This document shows positions 13,485 to 62,280 of a stretch of DNA of 64,000 bases, piece after piece; within the stretch, counting starts at the first letter, position 1; every line of letters starts with the position of its first letter. The notes below the pieces were generated by a model that was given only the letters and a program-made list of their open reading frames with translations, searched no databases and had not been told where the DNA came from. The translations under genes and the position numbers were made by a program. The stretch is from an uncultured Thermoplasmatales archaeon (lineage in GTDB: Archaea > Thermoplasmatota > E2 > DHVEG-1): the NCBI GenBank assembly GCA_964636235.1, contig CAZWQV010000001.1, positions 13,022 through 77,021 on the forward strand, given 5' to 3'.

Positions 13485-13557
13485 AGCCGACGGAGGGATT
13501 TGAACCCCCGACCTGCTGATTACGAATCAGCCGCACCACCAGCTATGCTACGTCGGC
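13485..13557 (-). tRNA. tRNA-Thr (anticodon CGU)
   Basis: Reverse complement folds as cloverleaf: 7-bp acceptor stem GCCGACG/CGTCGGC, anticodon loop UUCGUAA, T-arm GGGGG-TTCAAAT-CCCTC; no encoded CCA. Confidence 0.85.
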
Positions 13558-45134: not shown

Positions 45135-45980
45135 ATGAAAAGAAAAATAATTAAAATTGATAAATCACTCTGCAATGGATGTGGTAATTGTATCCCAAAT
45201 TGCCCTGAAGGTGCTATTCAAATAATAGATGAAAAAGCACAGATGATTAGTGATATATTTTGCGATGGATTAGGTGCATGTATCGGTCACTGCGCAAAAG
45301 GAGCTATTAGTGTAGAAGAACGAGAAGCAGAACCATATGACGAGAAAAAAGTAATGATAGAAAATATTATTCCATCTGGAGAAAAAACCATATTAGCCCA
45401 TCTAAATCATTTGAAAGATCATGGAGAAAAAACTTATATAACTCAAGCTTTAGAAGTGCTAAATGAACAAGGAATCGATATTGAATTTGATAAATCAGAC
45501 CTGAAATCAACACCCACATATCAAGGATGTCCTGGTGCTAAAGCAATTGATTTTTCAACCCAGAAAACAGAATGTGAAAGCGAAACATTAATAGCTAGTT
45601 CTCAACTTAAACAGTGGCCGATTCAACTACATCTCATATCTCCACTAGCCTCTTACTTTCAAGAATCTGATGTCATTCTTGTCGCAGATTGTGTTGCCTA
45701 TTCAAAGGGTAATTTTCATAACGAACTTTTACAGGGAAAAAGAATTGCAATTGCCTGTCCAAAATTAGACCGAAATATAGACCAATACATTGATAAATTA
45801 GCAATCATGATTGATCGGACAAAAATAAACACATTAACTGTTATTACTATGGAGGTCCCTTGTTGTTCTGGATTGTTAACTATTGCCAAAAACGCATTAG
45901 AAAATGCAACCAGAAACATTCCAATAAAACATATTATGATAGGCATTAAGGGAGAAAAATTAAAAGAACAATGGATTTAG
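45135..45980 (+). CDS. Iron-sulfur protein: N-terminal 2x[4Fe-4S] ferredoxin domain plus Cys-containing C-terminal domain of unassigned family
   Basis: CNGCGNCIPNCP and CDGLGACIGHCAKG motifs; additional Cys (CPGAK, ADCVAY, IACPKLD, VPCCSG); 17 bp upstream of hcp. Confidence 0.55.
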   Translation: MKRKIIKIDKSLCNGCGNCIPNCPEGAIQIIDEKAQMISDIFCDGLGACIGHCAKGAISVEEREAEPYDEKKVMIENIIPSGEKTILAHLNHLKDHGEKTYITQALEVLNEQGIDIEFDKSDLKSTPTYQGCPGAKAIDFSTQKTECESETLIASSQLKQWPIQLHLISPLASYFQESDVILVADCVAYSKGNFHNELLQGKRIAIACPKLDRNIDQYIDKLAIMIDRTKINTLTVITMEVPCCSGLLTIAKNALENATRNIPIKHIMIGIKGEKLKEQWI

Positions 45981-45997
45981 TTAAGGAGAAATAAAAA

Positions 45998-47632
45998 ATG
46001 TTTTGTTATCAATGTGAAGAAACCGCAAAAGGAAAAGGATGTACCATCGTTGGAGTTTGCGGAAAAAATGAAAATGTTGCCAATCTACAAGATTTATATT
46101 TATACATGTTAAAAGGAATATCTATTGTAGCTCTTGAAGCAAAAAAAAATGGCTCTCAAACCAAAAATGCTGATACGTTCATTATGAATGGTTTATTTTC
46201 TACAATCACTAATACTAATTTTAACAAACAATATTTTAAGAAAATGATACCTAAAGCAATACAAATTAGAGACGATTTACAAGAAAAAGTAAATGGGGAT
46301 ACTTCTTTTGATGCTCTTCAGTGGCATCCAAAAAATGATGAAGATATTAACAAAAAAGCATCAGAAATTGGTATATTAGCAGAAACAAATGAAGATATCC
46401 GATCACTCAAAGAACTATTAACCTATGGTATGAAAGGAATTGCTGCTTATGCACATCATGCATCTGTCTTAGGAAAAGAAAAGCAAGAGATTTATGATTT
46501 TATCCAGACTGGTCTTGCTGCAACATTACAAGAGCAAACAATAGAAAAACTGACAGAGCTTGTTATGCAATGTGGAGAGATGGGTGTTAAGACGATGGCA
46601 CTTCTTGATGAAGCAAACACATCATCATATGGTCATCCAGAACCAACTCAAGTAGAGCTAAATGTGAGAAACAACCCCAGCATACTTATCAGTGGTCATG
46701 ATCTTAAAGATTTAGAAGAATTACTATTGCAAACAAAAGGAACTGGAATTGATATCTATACCCATGGTGAAATGTTGCCAGCAAATGCGTATCCATTCTT
46801 CAAAAAATATGATCATTTTATTGGAAATTATGGTGGATCATGGTGGAGGCAAAAAGACGAATTTGAAAAATTCAATGGACCTATTCTTCTTACCTCAAAT
46901 TGTCTTGTCCCACCAAAGGAAACATATAAAGATAGAGTATATACAACAGGTGTTGTTGGTTTTGAAGGAGTAAAACATATACCTGACAGAAAAAATGGAA
47001 AAGAAAAAGATTTTTCAGATATAATAAAACAAGCTCGTTTAAGTAAACCTCCAGAATCGTTGGAACAAGGGAAAATTACTATTGGGTTTGCTCGGAACAC
47101 ATTATTGGGTGCAGCAGATAACATTCTTGAAGCTGTAAAATCAGGCGATATAACTCATTTTGTTGTTATGGCAGGATGTGACGGTCGACATAAAGAACGA
47201 GATTATTATACTCAATTTGCTCGATCATTACCAAAAAGTGCGGTCATTCTAACAGCCGGATGTGCTAAATATCGTTACAATAAATTAAATCTAGGAGAAA
47301 TTAATGGTATTCCAAGAGTTATCGATGCTGGACAATGTAATGATTCATATTCTCTTGCTGTCATTGCTATGAAACTAGCTGATATCCTCAATGTTGATTT
47401 TAACGAATTACCAATTATCTATAATATTGCATGGTATGAACAAAAGGCAGTTCTGGTTTTACTTGCCCTCCTGCATCTTGGTGTAAAAAACATAATGCTT
47501 GGACCAGTGTTACCTGCATTTGTTTCTTCAAATGTACTAAATTTACTGGTTGAAAAATTTAATGTACAGACAAATTCAACCGTTGAAAAAGATATTGAAA
47601 AATTATTTAAACCACTTATTAAAAAACAATAA
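45998..47632 (+). CDS. hcp: Hybrid cluster protein (hydroxylamine reductase)
   Basis: Hallmark N-terminus [12 protein letters not shown]; 544 aa. Confidence 0.9.
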
Positions 47633-47743
47633 AACATTTTTCTTTTTTTATTTGAAATATGAGTATGGTTAAAGGGGCAAATAATAAATATAATACATAA
47701 TATATTACATATAACAATTGTTAATAAACGGAGGCAATAAATC

Positions 47744-48166
47744 ATGAAAACAAAAAGCGCAGGATTAATGTGCATTGGGATTATGCTTATCATTGCAATG
47801 GCAATCCCTGCAATAGCAAATCAAAACGATACAACCTTGGAATTTGTTGGAATCAGTGGCGGATTTGGCGGAGTGACCGTCGAAGTTGAAAACACAGGAA
47901 ATGCCGTTGCTTCAGGAATAACAATGACAACAACCATTCAAGGCGGCATATTGAATGGAATTGATTTAACACACTTTTGTGGTGGGTGTGAAGACTGTGG
48001 AACAACACTTGGACCAGGCACAATTAAAACAGAAAACACCATGGAAGCAGGGTTAATAATGGGATTTGGCCCAGTACAAATAACTTGTGTTGCTGCAGCA
48101 GAAAACGCCCAAGAAGTATCATCCGAAGCAAGTGGATTTGTCATTGGCCCAATGATATTAATATAA
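47744..48166 (+). CDS. Small secreted Gly/Thr-rich protein of unknown function
   Basis: N-terminal signal/anchor MKTKSAGLMCIGIMLIIAMAIPAIA; four Cys in CGGCEDCG. Confidence 0.35.
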   Translation: MKTKSAGLMCIGIMLIIAMAIPAIANQNDTTLEFVGISGGFGGVTVEVENTGNAVASGITMTTTIQGGILNGIDLTHFCGGCEDCGTTLGPGTIKTENTMEAGLIMGFGPVQITCVAAAENAQEVSSEASGFVIGPMILI

Positions 48167-48191
48167 ATATAAAAAATGATTATGGATAAGC

Positions 48192-49112
48192 ATGCAAATT
48201 TCGGATACTATTTCAAAAAAAATTGAAATATTAAAAGAAAAGCAAGATGCGCTTATCCTTGTTCATAATTATCAACGACCTGAAATACAAGATATAGCGG
48301 ATTTTTTAGGAGATTCTTTTGCACTTTCAAAACAAGCAGAAAAAAGTTCACATCATGTGATTATTTTTTGTGGTGTAGATTTCATGGTCGAAAGTGCAAA
48401 AATATTAAGTCCTGATAAAAAAGTAATTCATCCTGACCTTGAAGCAAAATGCCCAATGGCAGCAATGGTAGAACCTGAACCATTGTCAATGTTGAAAGAA
48501 AAACATCCTCATGCTGCAGTAGTCTCATATGTTAACACATCTGCTGAAATTAAAGCACTGAGTGATATTTGTTGTACATCTTCTAATGCAGTAAAAATCA
48601 TAAAAAGCTTGAAGGAAAAGAAAATAATTTTTGTTCCAGATACAAATCTTGGCCTTTATATCAAACGATTTGTAACAAATAAAGAGATTATTATTTGGCC
48701 TGGAATATGTCCTACTCATCATAAAATTAAAAAAAATGATATTGCACAATTAAAACAACATCATCCTTCAGCAATAGTTCTTGTTCATCCTGAATGCAAT
48801 CCAGATGTTATTGATATAGCAGATCATGTTCTTTCAACACAAGGAATGATTAATCATGTAAAAGATTCACCTCATGATGAATTCATTATAGGAACTGAAA
48901 AAGAGATTTGTTATCGTTTAAAAAAAGAAAATCCGAACAAGCATTTTTATGCGATAGAAAAAGCTTTATGTCCTAACATGAAAAAAATCAAACTTCAGCA
49001 TGTGGTAAACAGTTTAGAAACATTATCACCACAGATATTTCTAGATGTTAATACGATTAAAAAGGCAAAAATTCCACTTCAAAAAATGTTAATGGTTGGA
49101 AGAGGAGATTAA
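48192..49112 (+). CDS. nadA: Quinolinate synthase
   Basis: 306 aa; ILVHNYQ N-terminal motif; three Cys Fe-S ligands at NadA-like positions. Confidence 0.85.
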   Translation: MQISDTISKKIEILKEKQDALILVHNYQRPEIQDIADFLGDSFALSKQAEKSSHHVIIFCGVDFMVESAKILSPDKKVIHPDLEAKCPMAAMVEPEPLSMLKEKHPHAAVVSYVNTSAEIKALSDICCTSSNAVKIIKSLKEKKIIFVPDTNLGLYIKRFVTNKEIIIWPGICPTHHKIKKNDIAQLKQHHPSAIVLVHPECNPDVIDIADHVLSTQGMINHVKDSPHDEFIIGTEKEICYRLKKENPNKHFYAIEKALCPNMKKIKLQHVVNSLETLSPQIFLDVNTIKKAKIPLQKMLMVGRGD

Positions 49113-53023: not shown

Positions 53024-55831
53024 TTGAAAGATATCGTTATAAAAGGAGCAAGAGAACATAATCTTCAAAACATAAGTGTGCAACTTCCAAGAGATAAATT
53101 CATCGTTATCACTGGCCTTTCTGGATCAGGTAAATCAACTCTTGCTTTTGATACTATTTATGCTGAAGGACAGCGAAGATATGTTGAATCATTATCTGCA
53201 TATGCTAGGCAGTTTCTTGGCCTTATGAATAAACCAGATGTTGATAGTATCGATGGATTATCACCTGCCATATCAATAGAGCAGAAAACAACAAGTAAAA
53301 ATCCAAGAAGTACCGTTGGCACGATTACTGAGATCTATGATTATCTCAGATTACTCTTCGCTCGAGTGGGAACTCCATATTGCCCAATCCATCATGAAAA
53401 AATCGAATCACAAACAGCTGAAAATATTGCCGCAACTATTGCTGATAAGTACAAAGAAATGATCACAATACTTTCTCCTATTATTCGACAGAAAAAAGGA
53501 ACATATGAGCAACTTTTTAAAGATTTAAACCAAGAAGGATACATACGAGTACGTGTTGATAAAGCGATATATAGAACAGATGAGACTATATCATTGGATA
53601 GATACAAACAACATGATATTGAACTAGTCATTGACCGACTGAAACCAAATGATTCCACGAGATTAACAGAAGCATGTGAACATGCACTAAAAAAGTCAGA
53701 AGGATTATTGGTCGTTCTTGATTCGGAGAATAATGAACAGTTATTTTCTTCAAAAATGGCTTGTCCTATCTGCGGTCTTGCTTTTGAAGAATTACAACCA
53801 AGAATGTTTTCATTTAACAGCCCATTCGGTGCTTGTGAAACTTGTCATGGTCTTGGAATAAACATGGAATTTGACCCGGATTTAATAATTCCAGACAAAG
53901 CTAAATCAATATCAGATGGTGCAATAAGGCTATATAAAGGGATACATGATAGATGGAGAATAAAATATCTAGGTGCAGTGGCCAACCATTTTGGTTTTGA
54001 TATTTTTACTCCAATAATGGATCTTTCGGAGCAACAATTCGATGCGCTTATGTATGGATCTTCTGATAGAATTAGATTCAATCTTTCCATGAGACATGGA
54101 TCAACCAATTGGTCAGGGATAAGACAATGGGAAGGACTAATCCCACAGTCAGATCGATTATATAAACAGACTGAATCAGATTATCGAAGAAGAGACCTTG
54201 AAAAATTTATGAGAGTCTATCCTTGTCCAGTTTGTAATGGAAAAAGACTCAAACCAAAAGCATTAGCTGTAAAAATTAATGATAAGACCATTGCAGATGT
54301 AACAGATATGAGCATTAAACAATCGATTCTCTTTTTTAAATCGTTAATATTATCAAAAAAGCAGCAAGAAATCGCCTGGCAGATTTTAAAGGAGATTAAT
54401 GCCCGACTTCACTTCCTAGACAATGTTGGATTAAGTTATCTAACTCTTTCTCGTAACTCTGGAACATTATCTGGCGGAGAAGCGCAACGAATTAGACTTG
54501 CAACACAAATCGGATCTAATCTGATGGGAGTTATTTATATTCTTGATGAACCATCTATTGGACTTCATCAAAGAGACAATAAAAAATTAATTGATACCTT
54601 GCATCATCTAAGAGATATCGGAAATACCTTAATTGTTGTTGAACATGATGAAGAGACAATTAGAAACTCTGATTATATAATCGATATGGGACCAGGTGCT
54701 GGCATTCATGGTGGAAAAATTGTTGCAAAAGGAAATGTATCTGAAATTGAAAATCATCCCTCATCATTAACTGGGAAATATTTGTCAGGAAAACTTGCTA
54801 TTTCCATTCCAACAAAGAGAAGAACATCAAATAATTATATTCATCTGTATGGTTGTAAAGAGCATAATTTAAAAAATATTGATGTTGATATTCCACTAGG
54901 CGTTCTCACACTCGTTACTGGTGTATCTGGAAGTGGCAAATCTACACTGATCTATGATATTTTATATCCTGCTCTAAAAAAAGAAATCTACAAATCACGG
55001 GTTACGACAGGAGCATATGAATCTCTTGGTTATGATGATAAAATTGATAAAGTAATAGTCATCGATCAAAGTCCAATAGGTAAAACCCCTCGAAGCAATC
55101 CATCGACATATACAAAAGTGTTTGATGAAATTAGAAAACTTTTTGCCCAGACCCAAGAGGCGAAAAAACGTGGATATAAACCAGGACGTTTTTCATTCAA
55201 TGTGAAAGGAGGTAGATGTGAAGCCTGTGCAGGAGATGGTGTGATAAAAATTGAAATGAATTTTTTACCAGATATTTACGTACAATGCGAAGAGTGCAAA
55301 GGAAAAAGATATAACAAAGAAACCCTAGATGTTACATATAAAGGAAAAAATATCGCCGACGTTCTAGACATGAGTGTGGAAGAAGCGTTATCATTTTTTG
55401 AAAATATTCCATATATCAAACGAAAATTGAAGACACTTTCACAAGTGGGACTTGATTATATTAAATTAGGGCAAAGTTCAACAACTTTGTCTGGAGGAGA
55501 AGCACAACGTATTAAATTAACAAGAGAACTGTCAAAAAGGAGTACAGGAAATACCATCTATTTGTTAGATGAACCAACCACTGGTTTGCATTTTCATGAT
55601 GTCAAAAAACTCATTGAAGTATTAAATAATCTGGTAGACAAAGGTAATAGTATAATTGTCATCGAACATAATCTTGAAGTAATCAAAAATGCTGATTATA
55701 TCATTGATTTAGGTCCTGAGGGAGGAGATCTTGGCGGAAGAATTATTGCTACAGGTACTCCCGAGGAAATTGTTAAACGAAAAAACAGTTATACTGGTGA
55801 GGTATTAAAACCAGTATTAAGCTCAAAATAA
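53024..55831 (+). CDS. uvrA: Excinuclease ABC subunit A
   Basis: 935 aa; two ABC ATPase modules ([18 protein letters not shown]), zinc-finger CxxC pairs, LSGGEAQRI signatures. Confidence 0.93.
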
Positions 55832-55840
55832 TTGTCATAT

Positions 55841-57391
55841 ATGTTTCATACCGATCATATCCCAAATAAACCAGGCTGCTATCTGTTTAAAAATTCGAAA
55901 GGTATTATTTTATATGTTGGGAAAGCAAAAAACCTAAAGAAACGATTAAATAGTTACCAACAAAAAAAGAATCATGATAGTAAAACAATTTCTCTTTTAC
56001 AACAGGTTACTACTGTTGATTTTATTATTACAGATAATGAAGTTGAAGCATTAGTTTTAGAAAACACACTCATTAAAAAACATCAACCAAAATACAATAT
56101 CCGATTAAAAGACTCAAAAGGATTTTCATATATAAAAATAACAGATGAACCATTTCCAAGAGTCATTATTGCAAGGCAAAAACAAGGTAAAGGAACATTT
56201 ATTGGCCCATTTGTTTCCGCTGCAGAAAGAGATTACATCCTCCAATTTATTCAAAAAACATTTCAACTGAGAACCTGTAATAAACTGCCAAAAAAACAAT
56301 GCCTTCGCTATCATATACATTTATGCAAAGCACCATGCATCAATAACATATCGCAAGATGATTATCTAAAGCTTATTACGCATGTGAAACATATTTTGAC
56401 CGGGCACATCAGTAAAGCAATCACATCTCTTGAATCAGAAATGAAAATGTTTGCAGATAATCAACAATTTGAACAAGCTCTTGAGAGAAGAAATCAGATT
56501 CAAGCATTAAAGCATCTTCAAGAAAAACAGAAAATGGAACGAGAAAAAAGATTCAACGAAGATATTATTAATTATCTCATTGAAGATGATTCCATGTACA
56601 TTATGATGTTTAATATTTACAAGGGAACATTAACCAATAAACAAGAATTCATGTTTGAATCATCTGAAGATGCATTTGAGCAATTTTTAATTCAGTATTA
56701 TACAGAAAATCCAATCCCTAAACAGATAATTATACCAAAAAAGATATCCTCTGCGTTTGACACCTATTTTTCTCAAATTAAAAAAAGCAAAGTACAATGT
56801 ATTGTCCCTCAGAAAGGGGAAAAAAAACAATTACTTTCTCTTATTGAAAAAAATATTGAAATTACATTTTTTGCTTCCACTAAAAAAATTTCATTACTTC
56901 AACAGAAATTACGTCTTCATGAAAAACCAACCGTTATCGAATGTTTTGATATCTCGCATCTATCAGGTACAAGCATGGTTGGATCGATGGTTCAGTTCCG
57001 AAATGGAAAACCAGACAAAACCAATTACAGAAGATTTCGAATTCGAAGTGTAAAAGGAATTGATGATGTTTCAGCTATTGGAGAAGTTGTCCGCCGCAGA
57101 TATAAAAGACTAAAAGAAGAGCGGCAGTTGTATCCAAATTTAATCATCATTGATGGTGGAAAGGGTCAGCTTAATAGAGCAATAAATGAACTTGATGAAT
57201 TAGGTGTTATCATCCCTATTATTAGTATCGCAAAGAAATTTGAAGAGATCTATATTCCGGGTCAATTACATCCCATACGTTTAAATAAAAAAGATAAAGC
57301 ATTACAATTTCTTCAAGAAATACGGGACGAAGCACATCGATTTGCCATTTCATATAATAGACTGCTTAGAAAAAAGGAGATGATCTCATAA
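55841..57391 (+). CDS. uvrC: Excinuclease ABC subunit C
   Basis: GIY-YIG N-terminus (PGCYLF ... LYVGKAKNL), UvrBC-interaction and RNase-H-like endonuclease domains; ATG at 55841 preferred over TTG at 55832. Confidence 0.9.
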   Translation: MFHTDHIPNKPGCYLFKNSKGIILYVGKAKNLKKRLNSYQQKKNHDSKTISLLQQVTTVDFIITDNEVEALVLENTLIKKHQPKYNIRLKDSKGFSYIKITDEPFPRVIIARQKQGKGTFIGPFVSAAERDYILQFIQKTFQLRTCNKLPKKQCLRYHIHLCKAPCINNISQDDYLKLITHVKHILTGHISKAITSLESEMKMFADNQQFEQALERRNQIQALKHLQEKQKMEREKRFNEDIINYLIEDDSMYIMMFNIYKGTLTNKQEFMFESSEDAFEQFLIQYYTENPIPKQIIIPKKISSAFDTYFSQIKKSKVQCIVPQKGEKKQLLSLIEKNIEITFFASTKKISLLQQKLRLHEKPTVIECFDISHLSGTSMVGSMVQFRNGKPDKTNYRRFRIRSVKGIDDVSAIGEVVRRRYKRLKEERQLYPNLIIIDGGKGQLNRAINELDELGVIIPIISIAKKFEEIYIPGQLHPIRLNKKDKALQFLQEIRDEAHRFAISYNRLLRKKEMIS

Positions 57392-59322
57392 CAGAATTTG
57401 AATTCACATCACCATTTCAGCCAAAAGGATCACAACCAGAGGCTATAAAAAAACTATCAAAAGGGATACAAAATAATTTTGATAAGCAAACCTTATTGGG
57501 AGTTACAGGGAGCGGAAAAACATATACCATGGCTAAAGTAATTCATGAGGCACAAAGACCAACTATTGTCATCGCCCATAACAAGACGTTGGCTATTCAA
57601 CTCTATAATGAATTCAAGGAGTTTTTCCCTCACAATCGTGTTGAATATTTTGTATCATATTATGATTATTATCAACCGGAATCATATATTCCTTCGAAAG
57701 ATCTTTATATTGAAAAAGATGCAGATATTAACCCAAAAATTGAACAAATGAGACTTTCAGCAACGGCATCTCTTTTATCTAGAAGAGATGTCATTGTCGT
57801 TGCCTCCGTATCTGCTATTTATAGTGTAGGCGATCCAACTGATTTTTCAAGAATGCGATTTGAATTTCAAAAAAACAGTCCCATCTCACGAGAAGAAATC
57901 ATTAATCAATTGGTCTTAATGCAGTATGAACGAAACGATTTTGATTTACAACAAGGTCGATTTAGAGTTAAGGGAGATGTTATTGATATCATACCAGGGT
58001 ATTATGATAATATTATTCGCATTGAATTATTTGGTGATGAAATTGAGCGGATTATAGAACTTGATAAAATAACAGCAAAGGTATTAGATGAATTTTCATA
58101 TCTTTATTTATTTCCCGCAAAACATTTTGTGATACCGGAGGAAAAAAAAGACAAAGCAATTGAGTCAATTAAACAAGAACTTGATGATACATTAACAAAT
58201 CTTGATATGATAGAAGCGCATCGATTAAAACAACGAACTCTTTATGATATCGAGATGATTGAAGAAACTGGTTTTTGTAAAGGAATTGAAAACTACTCTC
58301 GCCATTTTGATGGAAGAAAACCCGGTGATCGACCATATTGTTTACTTGATTATTTTCCTTCAGACTTTTTAATGTTTATTGACGAAAGTCATAGGACGAT
58401 TCCGCAGATTCATGCCATGCAACATGGTGACTATTCACGTAAGAAATCTCTAATTGAATATGGGTTTCGATTACCCAGTGCATTTGACAATAGACCTTTG
58501 ACGTTTGCTGAGTTTACTCAGTTCATGAATCATGTAATTTTTGTTTCCGCAACACCGGGAGACTATGAAATGCAGATTTCAAAACAGATAGTAGAGCAAA
58601 TCATTAGGCCCACGGGTCTTGTTGATCCTGAAGTTGATGTGCGCCCAATTGAGGGTCAAATAAAGGATTTAATCGATGAAATAAATAGAACCATCAAAAA
58701 TGGTCATCGTGTGATTGTAACAACGCTAACAAAGAAACTAGCTGAAGAATTATCAGAGTATTTATCAGAACAAGGAATTAAAACTCGGTACTTACATGCA
58801 GAAATTGACACACTTGAACGGACAGAAATAATTCGTGAACTTCGACTAGGTGAATTTGATGTATTAGTTGGCATTAATTTACTACGTGAAGGTTTGGATA
58901 TCCCTGAAATAGGATTTATTGGAATTCTTGATGCTGATAAAGAAGGGTTTTTACGTGATCAACGCAGTCTCATCCAGATTATTGGAAGAGCTGCAAGGAA
59001 CGCTGATGCAAAAGTTGTACTTTATGCTGATACGGTTACCGAGTCCATGCAAAAAGCATTGGATGAGACCATGCGGAGAAGAAATATGCAGATTGCATAT
59101 AATAAAAAACATAATATCATACCGCAAACCATTATTAAACCAATAAAGGAAAGAAAAATAGAAATTAAAGATACAAAACATATTCCACGATCAACCATTC
59201 CGGATATGATTAGAAAACTCGAAAGTGACATGAAGAAAGCATCAGATAGCCTAGATTTTGAACGTGCGATATTTTTAAGAGATAAAATAAAACAATTACG
59301 ATTGCGTTTATCAACAAAATAA
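57388..59322 (+). CDS. uvrB: Excinuclease ABC subunit B
   Basis: Helicase motifs (GVTGSGKT, DESH) and C-terminal UvrB/UvrC interaction helix; conserved N-terminus (FTSPFQPKGSQPEAI) lies upstream of the first ATG/TTG (57496) in an open frame bounded by TAG 57367-57369, so the start codon is non-canonical or unresolved. Confidence 0.88.
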   Translation: MTEFEFTSPFQPKGSQPEAIKKLSKGIQNNFDKQTLLGVTGSGKTYTMAKVIHEAQRPTIVIAHNKTLAIQLYNEFKEFFPHNRVEYFVSYYDYYQPESYIPSKDLYIEKDADINPKIEQMRLSATASLLSRRDVIVVASVSAIYSVGDPTDFSRMRFEFQKNSPISREEIINQLVLMQYERNDFDLQQGRFRVKGDVIDIIPGYYDNIIRIELFGDEIERIIELDKITAKVLDEFSYLYLFPAKHFVIPEEKKDKAIESIKQELDDTLTNLDMIEAHRLKQRTLYDIEMIEETGFCKGIENYSRHFDGRKPGDRPYCLLDYFPSDFLMFIDESHRTIPQIHAMQHGDYSRKKSLIEYGFRLPSAFDNRPLTFAEFTQFMNHVIFVSATPGDYEMQISKQIVEQIIRPTGLVDPEVDVRPIEGQIKDLIDEINRTIKNGHRVIVTTLTKKLAEELSEYLSEQGIKTRYLHAEIDTLERTEIIRELRLGEFDVLVGINLLREGLDIPEIGFIGILDADKEGFLRDQRSLIQIIGRAARNADAKVVLYADTVTESMQKALDETMRRRNMQIAYNKKHNIIPQTIIKPIKERKIEIKDTKHIPRSTIPDMIRKLESDMKKASDSLDFERAIFLRDKIKQLRLRLSTK

Positions 59323-59327
59323 TATTA

Positions 59328-60140
59328 TTATTTATCTACGAAGTAATAATTCATTTCATGTTGAATGATAGTATCTTTAATCATTTTTCCAAGTATTTTC
59401 TCTAGCCTATCTGTTTCTATTTGCAGTGTTGATTGTAATTCTTCAAAGGTTTTATTCTTTTTTAATAGCAATAGAAGAATTTTTCCTCTTATCTGTCTAT
59501 CCGATCCATCAAATGTCGATTGGGTTGTTTTTGGTTTTATTCCTGTACTCTGAGCCGTTAATACAAGAGAGCCGTAATCCATCAATGCATTATGCCACAT
59601 TCTACTTTGTCCCTCGGGAAGACATCGCTGGGCAATCATATATAATTCTTTTTCAGATGTTGATTCATCTAAATTAAATTCATGAATAAAGATTCTTCTT
59701 ATATTTGTATCAACGGTAGGAATATTCTCATTTCCTGCAAAAATACGAACCGCTTTAGAAGTATAATTTCCTATTCCGGGTAGTTCCTCATAAAATTCCA
59801 TTGCTTTAAGCACATTACCATTGAATTTATGGACTATTTTTTTAACAGATTCGTGCAAGTACTTTGCTCTTCTATTATAACCTAATCCAACCCAATTAGA
59901 TAATACATCATAAAATGATGCATCAGATAAATCTTCTATAGTAGGCCACTTTTTGATCCATTTATTGTAATAATCAATTACTCTATTTACTTGTGTCTGT
60001 TGTAACATAAATTCAGATATGAGAATTTTATAAGGATCTTTTGTATTTCTCCAAGGTAATTCTCTCTTATTATTTTGATAAAAAGTAAGAATTATTTGTT
60101 GAAATGATTCTATATCTTTTGTACTAATATCAATATTCAA
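59328..60140 (-). CDS. MutY-like HhH-GPD DNA glycosylase lacking the 4Fe-4S cysteine loop, with a short C-terminal extension
   Basis: MutY-like N-terminus (ELPWR ... DPYKILISEFMLQQTQV ... GLGYNRRA), HhH LPGIGNYTSKAV, catalytic Asp in VDTNIRRI; no Cys after the HhH-GPD core. Confidence 0.65.
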   Translation of the reverse strand: MNIDISTKDIESFQQIILTFYQNNKRELPWRNTKDPYKILISEFMLQQTQVNRVIDYYNKWIKKWPTIEDLSDASFYDVLSNWVGLGYNRRAKYLHESVKKIVHKFNGNVLKAMEFYEELPGIGNYTSKAVRIFAGNENIPTVDTNIRRIFIHEFNLDESTSEKELYMIAQRCLPEGQSRMWHNALMDYGSLVLTAQSTGIKPKTTQSTFDGSDRQIRGKILLLLLKKNKTFEELQSTLQIETDRLEKILGKMIKDTIIQHEMNYYFVDK

Positions 60141-60333: not shown

Positions 60334-60627
60334 ATGGGGGAACCTACAGACGTAACATTGAAACAAGCAACATATGAATTGCTTCAAACCAGTATTTTTA
60401 AAAATATTTCAAGGAGAACTAATAATAGATTTGCAGAAAAGCTTGCTATTTGGTTGGTTCGTTATATATTAATCATCTCATCCATGAATGAATCGTTACA
60501 TATTAATCTTGAACAGATTTTATTAAATCTTCATGGAGACAGGTTAAAAAAAATTGTTAACATCACAACCAAATCAGTTGAGACAGTTTCAAATGATTCT
60601 GAAAAATATGATAGTTATATATGGTAA
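60334..60627 (+). CDS. Hypothetical small protein
   Basis: 97-aa ORF with no recognisable motifs. Confidence 0.2.
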   Translation: MGEPTDVTLKQATYELLQTSIFKNISRRTNNRFAEKLAIWLVRYILIISSMNESLHINLEQILLNLHGDRLKKIVNITTKSVETVSNDSEKYDSYIW

Positions 60628-60686
60628 AAAAACAAAAAAAGGGAGTAGTTATTTCTCCCATTGTATTAATTTTTTTGAAATCTTAT

Positions 60687-61250
60687 TTATTTGAAATTCC
60701 AATTGTCTTTCCAATATTGATGAAGTTCATCTAATGTTTTGTCAAGAGTTATTGTATCTTTGACATCCCAGAAATAGTTGGTTGGCATTGGAAATATAGT
60801 GTTTGATGGGAAATTCCAAGTTTCTGCAAGGTATGGGTCGATAAAGCAGCAATAATGTTTGTATGTTCCATCTGTTTCTACCCAACCATAAAAAGTTCCA
60901 ACTCTTGAGTGGTTTTTATCATAAATTGGTTTGTCAATAAGCTCATCAGTTGGACAAGAGGTATTTCCGCATGGAACTGCTTTATTCCAGTATCTTCCTA
61001 GTTGCTCTATTGTTTTATTTAAGGTGACATGATCATGGCATTCTTTTATATAATCGCTATAAATTGGATAGAGCTTGTGTGTTCCTCTGAACCATGTGTC
61101 ACGAGTGTTTTCATTTGGTCGAATACCAAAGAAATATCCTGGAAATTCATTGTTCCAGCTTTTCCAATATTTATCTACTTTTCCAATGGTGTTTCCATTT
61201 GAATCATAAACTTCTTTACCTACTAGATATTGTGGATTATCTATTTTCAT
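60687..61250 (-). CDS. Hypothetical protein with internal tandem duplication (PRC-barrel-like halves)
   Basis: Repeat LVGKEVYDSNGNTIGKVDKYW // LIDKPIYDKNHSRVGTFYGW and DHVTLNKTIEQLGRYW // DTITLDKTLDELHQYW; several Cys. Confidence 0.35.
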   Translation of the reverse strand: MKIDNPQYLVGKEVYDSNGNTIGKVDKYWKSWNNEFPGYFFGIRPNENTRDTWFRGTHKLYPIYSDYIKECHDHVTLNKTIEQLGRYWNKAVPCGNTSCPTDELIDKPIYDKNHSRVGTFYGWVETDGTYKHYCCFIDPYLAETWNFPSNTIFPMPTNYFWDVKDTITLDKTLDELHQYWKDNWNFK

Positions 61251-61403
61251 TTACCATCTCTCCTAGTCAAATATGGCATTGCATCTTTGACACCTTATAT
61301 AAATCATTCTATTTTTTTAACCGAATTGTTAATATATTTATTAAAATAAGTTATTTATTAATTATAAAAATAAATTATTGTATTATTTTTTATAATAATA
61401 TTT

Positions 61404-61754
61404 TTATTCTTCTAATTTTGCAAGGGTTTTTTTTATTGCCATATACCATTGTTCAAGACAACGTTCTGCATGTTTTTTTATCGTTTTATTATCCAAACAT
61501 GTATAGACATGATAATAGCCGCCTTGTGCGAGGTTTCTAGTTATTTTGTCACACATTCCACAATTCGCTAATTTTTGTAATGATCGATAAACCGTGCTTC
61601 TTTCTTTATCAAGTTTTTTTGCTAATTCATCTGCTCTAAGCTCTCCAGATTTTTTGAGCAATTTATATACTTCAATATCTAAGTTATTCAGATTAAAGAC
61701 ACATTTTACTGCATCATCGCATTGAAGGTTTTTGGTATCATCCAAAACTCTCAT
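61404..61754 (-). CDS. Small winged-helix (TrmB/MarR-like) transcriptional regulator
   Basis: 116 aa; HTH region LRADELAKKLDKERSTVYRSLQKL; divergent from trxA. Confidence 0.5.
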   Translation of the reverse strand: MRVLDDTKNLQCDDAVKCVFNLNNLDIEVYKLLKKSGELRADELAKKLDKERSTVYRSLQKLANCGMCDKITRNLAQGGYYHVYTCLDNKTIKKHAERCLEQWYMAIKKTLAKLEE

Positions 61755-61843
61755 CTAAAACAACATATTCAATTTCAAATATATAATGGTTGTGTTAAAT
61801 TAATGCACAAACGTTATATAGTACTTAAAACATACAATAAATA

Positions 61844-62254
61844 ATGACAGACGAGTTAGCAGCAATTAAAAGAAAAAAACTCGAAGAATTAAAAAAGAGA
61901 TATTTAACTGGAGGAAATGACATGGAAAATATGCCAAATACACCACTAGATGTTAAAGATGCGAATTTTAATGATTACATTAGCAAATATGATACAATTG
62001 TTATTGATTGTTGGGCTCCCTGGTGTGGACCTTGCAGGATGATCGCACCAGTTATTGAGGATCTGGCAAAAGAAATGCAAGGAAAAATCGTTTTTGGAAA
62101 ATTAAATGTTGATGAAAACCAATCGACATCAACACAATATGGGATAATGAGTATTCCTTCATTACTTGTATTTAAAAACGGAAAACTGGTTGACAAGATT
62201 GTCGGTGCAATGCCCAAACCGATGCTTAAAACAAAACTTGAATCATATATGTAG
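61844..62254 (+). CDS. trxA: Thioredoxin
   Basis: WAPWCGPC active site; 136 aa. Confidence 0.88.
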   Translation: MTDELAAIKRKKLEELKKRYLTGGNDMENMPNTPLDVKDANFNDYISKYDTIVIDCWAPWCGPCRMIAPVIEDLAKEMQGKIVFGKLNVDENQSTSTQYGIMSIPSLLVFKNGKLVDKIVGAMPKPMLKTKLESYM

Positions 62255-62280
62255 TTACTTATATGGAGTTTGACCCTTAA

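Follow-up and report, generated by a model that had tools for sequence, protein, structure and literature searches.

A stretch of 64,000 nucleotides from an uncultured Thermoplasmatales archaeon (assembly GCA_964636235.1, contig CAZWQV010000001.1, positions 13,022 to 77,021 of the forward strand; the whole stretch is hereafter called the window) carries a block of DNA-repair genes between positions 53024 and 60140. The listing of open reading frames (ORFs) and the family scans placed the excinuclease genes uvrA, uvrC, and uvrB next to one another and co-oriented on the + strand, as an earlier note made from the sequence alone had described, and a gene for an HhH-GPD glycosylase converges on them from the opposite strand (Table 1). 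All three UvrABC subunits exceeded the NCBIfam equivalog cut-offs, with 1494.8 bits for UvrA against NF001503 (curated cut-off 1147), 1004.8 bits for UvrB against NF003673 (743), and 484.7 bits for UvrC against TIGR00194 (285.45). UvrC has a GIY-YIG, a UVR, and both RNase H-like domains. The open frame of uvrC extends over 55832-57391 (+) and its likely start is the ATG at 55841; the 9-bp spacing between uvrA and uvrC given in the note holds provided that this ATG is used. Between the last position of uvrB (59322) and the first of the glycosylase ORF, counted with its stop codon (59328), lie 5 bp, so the gap between the convergent genes was also correct. The reported overlap of uvrC and uvrB holds only with the non-canonical ATA at 57388-57390 as the uvrB start; the first canonical one is TTG 57496.

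Table 1. Features of the uvrA-uvrC-uvrB block and the convergent glycosylase gene (positions in the window; residue numbers refer to the glycosylase)
Feature	Position	Strand	Description	Basis
uvrA	53024-55831	+	935 aa, TTG start preceded by GGGGG	NF001503, Pfam UvrA_inter and UvrA_DNA-bind
uvrC	55841-57391	+	516 aa from ATG (519 aa from TTG 55832)	TIGR00194
uvrC/uvrB junction	57370-57391	+	In-frame A_AAA_AAG 57370-57376, GGAG 57376-57379, 8-nt spacer, ATA 57388-57390 overlapping uvrC TAA 57389-57391	
uvrB	57388-59322	+	644 aa if ATA 57388 is the start	NF003673, Pfam UvrB_inter, UvrB, Helicase_C, UVR
MutYX-type clusterless adenine glycosylase (predicted)	59328-60140	-	270 aa, TTG start, GGTGA upstream	Best PDB match 8UUC
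Catalytic HhH-GPD domain	59544-60140	-	aa 1-199	Pfam PF00730, site mapping against 8UUC and mouse MUTYH
Catalytic E43	60012-60014	-		Aligned to 8UUC Glu33
Wedge (intercalating) Y88		-		Aligned to 8UUC Tyr78
HhH GIGNYT, including Y126	59760-59777	-	Motif LPGIGNYT at residues 120-127	
Y126		-		Aligned to 8UUC Ala116
Catalytic D144	59709-59711	-		Aligned to 8UUC Glu134
Y189		-		Aligned to 8UUC Tyr180
Region in place of the 4Fe-4S loop	59523-59561	-	aa 194-206, LTAQSTGIKPKTT; no cysteine; predicted short helix 196-199, corresponding to helix Hw of MutYX	
End of interdomain connector and X domain	59331-59522	-	aa 207-270	
8-oxoG recognition pair Q207 / R215	59520-59522 / 59496-59498	-		Aligned to 8UUC Gln201 / Arg209

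The catalytic half of the glycosylase was readily placed, as its best NCBIfam model was mutY TIGR01084, with 176.5 bits over model positions 2-194 of 277, although the cut-off of 286.5 was not reached. The nth model TIGR01083 scored 52.3 bits (cut-off 211.7) and ogg 17 bits, so that MutY was the closest of these glycosylase families, and the MutY-like N-terminus and HhH motif described in the earlier note were borne out. By reading of the motif, the position of EndoIII Lys120 (GVGRKTA) is occupied by Tyr126 in the glycosylase (GIGNYTS). All top PDB sequence matches were MutY or MUTYH proteins, and the first of them, 8UUC (E 3.3e-45), was aligned into the C-terminal domain (QSTFEGSRRQ vs. QSTFDGSDRQ). 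8UUC is the MutYX of Eggerthella sp., an adenine glycosylase without a 4Fe-4S cluster (Trasvina-Arenas et al., Nucleic Acids Res 2025, PMC12631127). According to that study, the NUDIX-like domain of other MutYs is replaced in MutYX by an X domain of 67 residues with three helices and three short strands, 8-oxoguanine (8-oxoG) is recognized by Gln201 and Arg209, and an extended helix H11 (Tyr180) together with a new helix Hw, whose Arg193 and Arg194 reach the DNA backbone, makes up for the lost cluster.

The AlphaFold2 model of the glycosylase (mean predicted local distance difference test score, pLDDT, 92.4) was superimposed by Foldseek on 8UUC over 273 columns, its full length, with a template modeling (TM) score of 0.85 and a root-mean-square deviation of 2.6 Å. 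Canonical MutY structures fitted the catalytic domain of the model only (TMq ~0.65). The predicted X domain consists of helices 214-227, 232-239, and 243-255 with short strands at 229, 260-262, and 265-267, in agreement with the earlier claim of a short helical C-terminus that is not NUDIX-like. Neither Pfam nor NCBIfam holds a model for the X domain; Pfam recognized just the HhH-GPD part (PF00730), and over the X domain returned only a weak match to PCI, a winged-helix family (E 0.0018).

Homologs were collected by a word-indexed search that scored 8000 candidates, 7981 of which reached E <= 1e-5. The top 120 came from metagenomes, were 55-72% identical to the window protein, and measured ~267-280 aa. 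The residue numbering of the MutYX paper was rebuilt from a HMMER alignment with 8UUC, and the sites were then mapped on the window protein, on these 120 closest homologs, and on the 150 best representatives of 50%-identity clusters. E43, Y88, Y126, D144, Y189, Q207, and R215 were invariant across the 120 close homologs. Q207 and R215, spaced by eight residues as in 8UUC, were also kept by most of the 150 representatives (Gln in 131, Arg in 145), and their invariance argues for kept 8-oxoG recognition. Where mouse MUTYH has its four cysteines (Cys-X6-Cys-X2-Cys-X5-Cys), the window protein has Leu194 followed by gaps; its sole cysteine, C173, is outside the loop position. The 4Fe-4S cysteine loop was likewise absent from the alignment of all 120 homologs, which settled in favor of the earlier note its claim that these cysteines are missing. 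Homology, fold, the absent cysteines, and the conservation of the listed residues were thus direct observations on the glycosylase.

A catalytic Asp together with a Tyr on helix H8 marks the Entamoeba/Chlorobi subtype of MutYX (PMC12631127), which is reportedly also described in FEBS J 2016;283:521. By sequence and predicted fold, the glycosylase is a MutYX of this Asp/H8-Tyr subtype and not a new class of enzyme. The earlier note had called it an atypical, possibly Fe-S-independent MutY relative. It is indeed a clusterless MutY with a different C-terminal domain, but the type has already been described and solved as 8UUC; therefore, the protein is atypical compared with canonical MutY and yet a regular member of a large family.

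By homology with the Eggerthella enzyme, the glycosylase would excise adenine opposite 8-oxoG without a cluster. Its HhH-GPD domain would flip out the adenine mispaired with 8-oxoG, Glu43 and Asp144 would cut the glycosidic bond with the assistance of Tyr126, and Tyr88 would wedge into the DNA helix. The reading of 8-oxoG, a task of the FSH loop in a NUDIX-like domain, would fall to Gln207 and Arg215, which lie where the connector ends and the small winged-helix-like X domain begins. A longer helix (Tyr189) and an additional short one would occupy the space vacated by the 4Fe-4S loop.

Some points weigh against this functional reading. The identity of the glycosylase to characterized MutYX is only ~35%, and the DNA-contacting Arg193 and Arg194 of helix Hw are replaced by Gln197 and Ser198, although most relatives carry Lys or Arg there; the backbone contact may therefore differ in the window protein, for example by way of K202 or K204. 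MutYX in anaerobes may also act on other lesions, and the preference of MutYX for 8-oxoG:A over G:A is below that of canonical MutY (PMC12631127). The host itself looks anaerobic, as a hybrid-cluster protein, ATP-citrate lyase, and ferredoxins are encoded in the window, and the thymine glycosylase MIG (1kea) was a significant PDB match to the window protein (E 1e-26). The MutYX fold could thus have been kept for another physiological substrate, such as G:A or T:G mismatches or deaminated purines, with the X domain serving mainly as a general DNA clamp. We considered this unlikely, as the Gln/Arg pair is retained throughout the close homologs and by most of the representatives, and the MutY models scored far above Nth and ogg. 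Excision of adenine opposite 8-oxoG is the reading that we preferred.

The family to which the glycosylase belongs appeared much broader than its published range. The first clusterless MutYs were reportedly listed in a FEBS J paper of 2016. The MutYX study counted 46 clusterless MutYs, treated them as rare, placed them in Lactobacillales, a few anaerobic bacterial groups, and Entamoeba, and took this restricted, nested distribution as an argument that the cluster was lost secondarily; archaea were not among the clades listed for clusterless MutY or MutYX (PMC12631127). In our searches, the named members among the best 120 homologs were metagenome-assembled genomes (MAGs) of Thermoplasmatota or Euryarchaeota, and more than 120 clusters at 90% identity lay within 55-72% identity of the window protein, making the MutYX architecture abundant in archaea. 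An exhaustive search returned 1460 cluster representatives at E <= 1e-30, and of the 150 representatives used for the site mapping, ~133 were clusterless. More distant named members included a Woesearchaeota MAG, Chlorobium limicola, and Parcubacteria/Patescibacteria. What is new is therefore the spread of MutYX into archaea and candidate-phyla (CPR) bacteria, which extends the published range of bacterial clades and Entamoeba without adding a new kind of protein. This spread widens the data on whether the Fe-S cluster was ancestral in MutY. A practical gain is correct annotation, together with the recognition of a host that has an intact bacterial-type nucleotide excision repair (NER) operon and a predicted cluster-free 8-oxoG:A adenine glycosylase. 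Many of the proteins, among them P0010, P0020, P0048, P0086, P0126, and P0139, are labeled “Fe-S cluster assembly protein HesB” by NCBI, whereas JGI uses “A/G-specific adenine glycosylase”; for these cluster-free glycosylases, the HesB label is a misnomer.

Conservation of the gene block was examined by scanning metagenomes with UvrC, which yielded 80 loci (L084-L163). The order uvrA-uvrC-uvrB was found in ~40 of them, with UvrC 51-83% identical to that of the window. The closest related contig (L001, the same as L084) has an identical arrangement, with the glycosylase gene directly after uvrB and with TrmB, thioredoxin, and redoxin genes downstream. In L002 and L003 the glycosylase gene lies two genes beyond uvrB, and it was not detected within up to ~2 kb downstream of uvrB in the remaining loci. 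Bacterial loci fetched by UvrB showed the order uvrB-uvrA(-uvrC), with UvrA and UvrB 52-60% identical to the window proteins and UvrC 31-36% identical. Among the matches listed by a pattern-based contig scan, most were from Bacillota at 52-58% identity and a few from archaeal MAGs at 60-68%, a distribution that is suggestive and is not a phylogeny. The window itself was taken to be archaeal, because it encodes an archaeal-type DnaG primase (NF003108) and because the named closest homologs of the glycosylase come from Thermoplasmatota MAGs. The block is very probably a vertically maintained uvrA-uvrC-uvrB NER operon of a Thermoplasmatota-type archaeon, with a convergent MutYX gene abutting it.

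The earlier note had instead seen a compact acquired DNA-repair island. The three uvr genes do form an operon-like block, and the bacterial origin of archaeal UvrABC is the general and established view (review PMC7776575). The 55-60% identity of UvrA and UvrB to Bacillota proteins would fit recent acquisition of all four genes from bacteria, as would the fact that MutYX has so far been described from bacteria and Entamoeba (PMC12631127). However, the GC content over the cluster (0.32-0.34) is within the range of the window, and neither GC nor skew departs from the flanking values. Next to the block there was no sign of an integrase, a tRNA, or a repeat boundary, and Rfam and tRNA scans of the window returned only one tRNA-Thr, at 13485, far from the cluster. 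The A-C-B order, unlike the B-A(-C) order of the fetched bacterial loci, is common to the ~40 related archaeal-type loci, and the glycosylase gene is next to or near uvrB in the closest relatives only. A recently acquired island was thus judged quite improbable; a conserved operon specific to the lineage, to which the glycosylase gene is loosely linked, describes the block better.

The UvrC encoded in this operon is shortened at its C-terminus. It ends 16 residues past the DEAHRFA motif, its alignment with TIGR00194 stops at model position 539 of 574, and no HhH Pfam match corresponding to the C-terminal (HhH)2 domain was found in it. The bacterial UvrCs in the fetched loci continue for ~60 further residues with PGIGPKR. 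The end point was the same in every related archaeal locus (L084-L163), so that UvrC lacks (HhH)2 across the clade. In bacterial UvrC, the (HhH)2 domain is required for single-stranded DNA binding and 5' incision (PMC7835731). Neither a separate (HhH)2 ORF nor a second HhH-GPD paralog was found in the window. Short UvrCs were also seen in a Thaumarchaeota MAG (L017) and in one MAG labeled Proteobacteria (L033).

The start of uvrB required closer attention, as its frame contains no ATG, GTG, or TTG before TTG 57496. That TTG was rejected as the start, because 36 conserved N-terminal residues aligned by the UvrB models and by all homologs would be lost; model positions 1-651 of NF003673 correspond to residues 3-638 of the ATA-started protein. 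Translation of uvrB from ATA 57388 is most likely. We compared 39 distinct related uvrC/uvrB junctions, in which the uvrB start overlapping the uvrC stop was ATGA (24), GTGA (3), TTGA (1), ATAA (8), or ATAG (3), and no other codon occurred at that position. The ATA junctions (the window, L001, L084, L085, L089, L090, L092, L093, L095, L097, L105, and L109) amounted to 11 of the 39 distinct ones. GGAG stood ~8 nt upstream in 11/11 ATA junctions and in 7/28 of the others (Fisher p = 2e-5, for loci that are phylogenetically non-independent), and starts with a GGAG or GGTG motif 6-9 nt ahead of them are common in this genome. On a neighbor-joining tree of UvrC, the ATA states were scattered, implying ~six changes. 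In the window, L085, and L105, no other canonical start lies ahead of the conserved P.G.QP motif. An ATG does occur 9-10 codons downstream in 8/11 ATA loci, which weighs against ATA initiation, as translation could start there.

The GGAG 8 nt upstream, re-initiation by ribosomes that end on the overlapping uvrC stop, or both would bring about ATA initiation. It is quite possible, though short of probable, that uvrB of this clade genuinely starts at a near-cognate ATA placed on the uvrC stop (ATAA or ATAG), a state that would have arisen or reverted about six times and always with a strong GGAG. If true, synthesis of UvrB would be tied to translation of a UvrC without (HhH)2, and the operon would represent a remodeled archaeal NER module with built-in UvrC:UvrB coupling.

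A UvrC-UvrB fusion made by -1 ribosomal frameshifting on A_AAA_AAG, seven codons before the uvrC stop, would dispense with ATA initiation. The heptamer is of the dnaX type, its -1 frame is the uvrB frame and is open into uvrB, similar heptamers are present in L002 and other loci, and the window has no canonical uvrB start. In L085, however, the uvrB frame is closed by a stop codon immediately before the ATA, so that fusion is impossible there, and yet this locus has no canonical start either. The heptamer is common in an AT-rich genome, with 13 in-frame copies in the 18,169 codons of the window, it simply encodes a conserved Lys-Lys, and the relatives with an ATGA overlap need no frameshift. 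The stop codon in L085 and the frequency of the heptamer led us to reject the fusion as highly improbable, and A_AAA_AAG was judged to be a by-product of the conserved Lys-Lys in an AT-rich genome; ATA 57388 remains the preferred start. For the glycosylase, a frameshift, an assembly or sequencing error, or a decaying pseudogene behind the missing cysteine loop, for which nothing speaks beyond the oddness of a cysteine-free MutY, is ruled out with near certainty, because nothing interrupts the reading frame between the catalytic domain and a C-terminal domain that is conserved, an independent JGI contig encodes a 100% identical protein, and all 120 homologs, at 55-72% identity, have the same architecture and none has the loop.

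Genes elsewhere in the window gave some indication of the lifestyle of the host. Aconitase, ATP-citrate lyase, monomeric isocitrate dehydrogenase, hybrid-cluster protein, NadA, and ferredoxins are encoded; aconitase, hybrid-cluster protein, NadA, and ferredoxins point to a host that is likely an anaerobe making many Fe-S proteins. Between 36833 and 44205, a co-oriented run of aconitase, two ATP-citrate lyase subunits, and monomeric isocitrate dehydrogenase suggests a reductive tricarboxylic acid cycle module, and it is followed at 45135-49112 by genes for a hybrid-cluster protein, a ferredoxin-domain protein, and NadA. Past the glycosylase, the region 60334-62847 is syntenic with 7341-9837 of L001 and holds two ORFs without annotation (97 and 187 aa) as well as genes for a TrmB-family regulator, a thioredoxin (WCGPC), and a redoxin/AhpC-like protein (WCQPC). 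Genes of redox-stress type thus lie beside a predicted 8-oxoguanine repair enzyme. The 187-aa protein (60687-61250, - strand) has no Pfam family and a high content of Trp, Tyr, and Cys, and it is conserved at the corresponding place in L001. It carries an apparent internal duplication, with two copies resembling ...GK.VYD..G..IG.V...YW...TL.KT..EL..YW.

Compared with known systems, the excinuclease of the window resembles bacterial UvrABC in that its three subunits score above the equivalog cut-offs and in the 55-60% identity of UvrA and UvrB to Bacillota proteins. It differs from the fetched bacterial loci in gene order (A-C-B vs. B-A(-C)), and from bacterial UvrABC in a UvrC without (HhH)2 and in a uvrB that begins, most likely, at an ATA overlapping the uvrC stop.

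The glycosylase shares with canonical MutY and MUTYH (e.g., G. stearothermophilus MutY 6U7T and E. coli MutY) the catalytic HhH-GPD domain, matched at E ~1e-30 to 1e-34, and the Glu/Asp/Tyr set. Unlike them, it has no Cys-X6-Cys-X2-Cys-X5-Cys loop, no NUDIX-like domain, and no FSH loop, and it stays below the TIGR01084 cut-off. The clusterless MutY of Lactobacillales similarly has no Fe-S cluster but, unlike the window protein, keeps the NUDIX-like 8-oxoG domain with the FSH loop (PMC12631127). The closest structural counterpart was the Eggerthella MutYX, with which the window protein shares the two-domain architecture, length (270 vs. ~273 aa), absence of the 4Fe-4S cysteines, X domain, Gln/Arg pair, wedge Tyr, catalytic Glu, and H11 Tyr. 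The second catalytic residue is Asp144 in the window protein and Glu134 in Eggerthella, the active-site Tyr is at the canonical H8 position (Y126) rather than at the swapped position of Eggerthella Tyr132, the basic residues of Hw are absent, and the window protein comes from an archaeon, not from an actinobacterium. The catalytic Asp and H8 Tyr, combined with the X domain and the Gln/Arg pair, are those of the Entamoeba/Chlorobi subtype, and the Chlorobium limicola protein is a family member with 43% identity. The archaeal proteins differ from that subtype in forming their own dense group at 55-72% identity.

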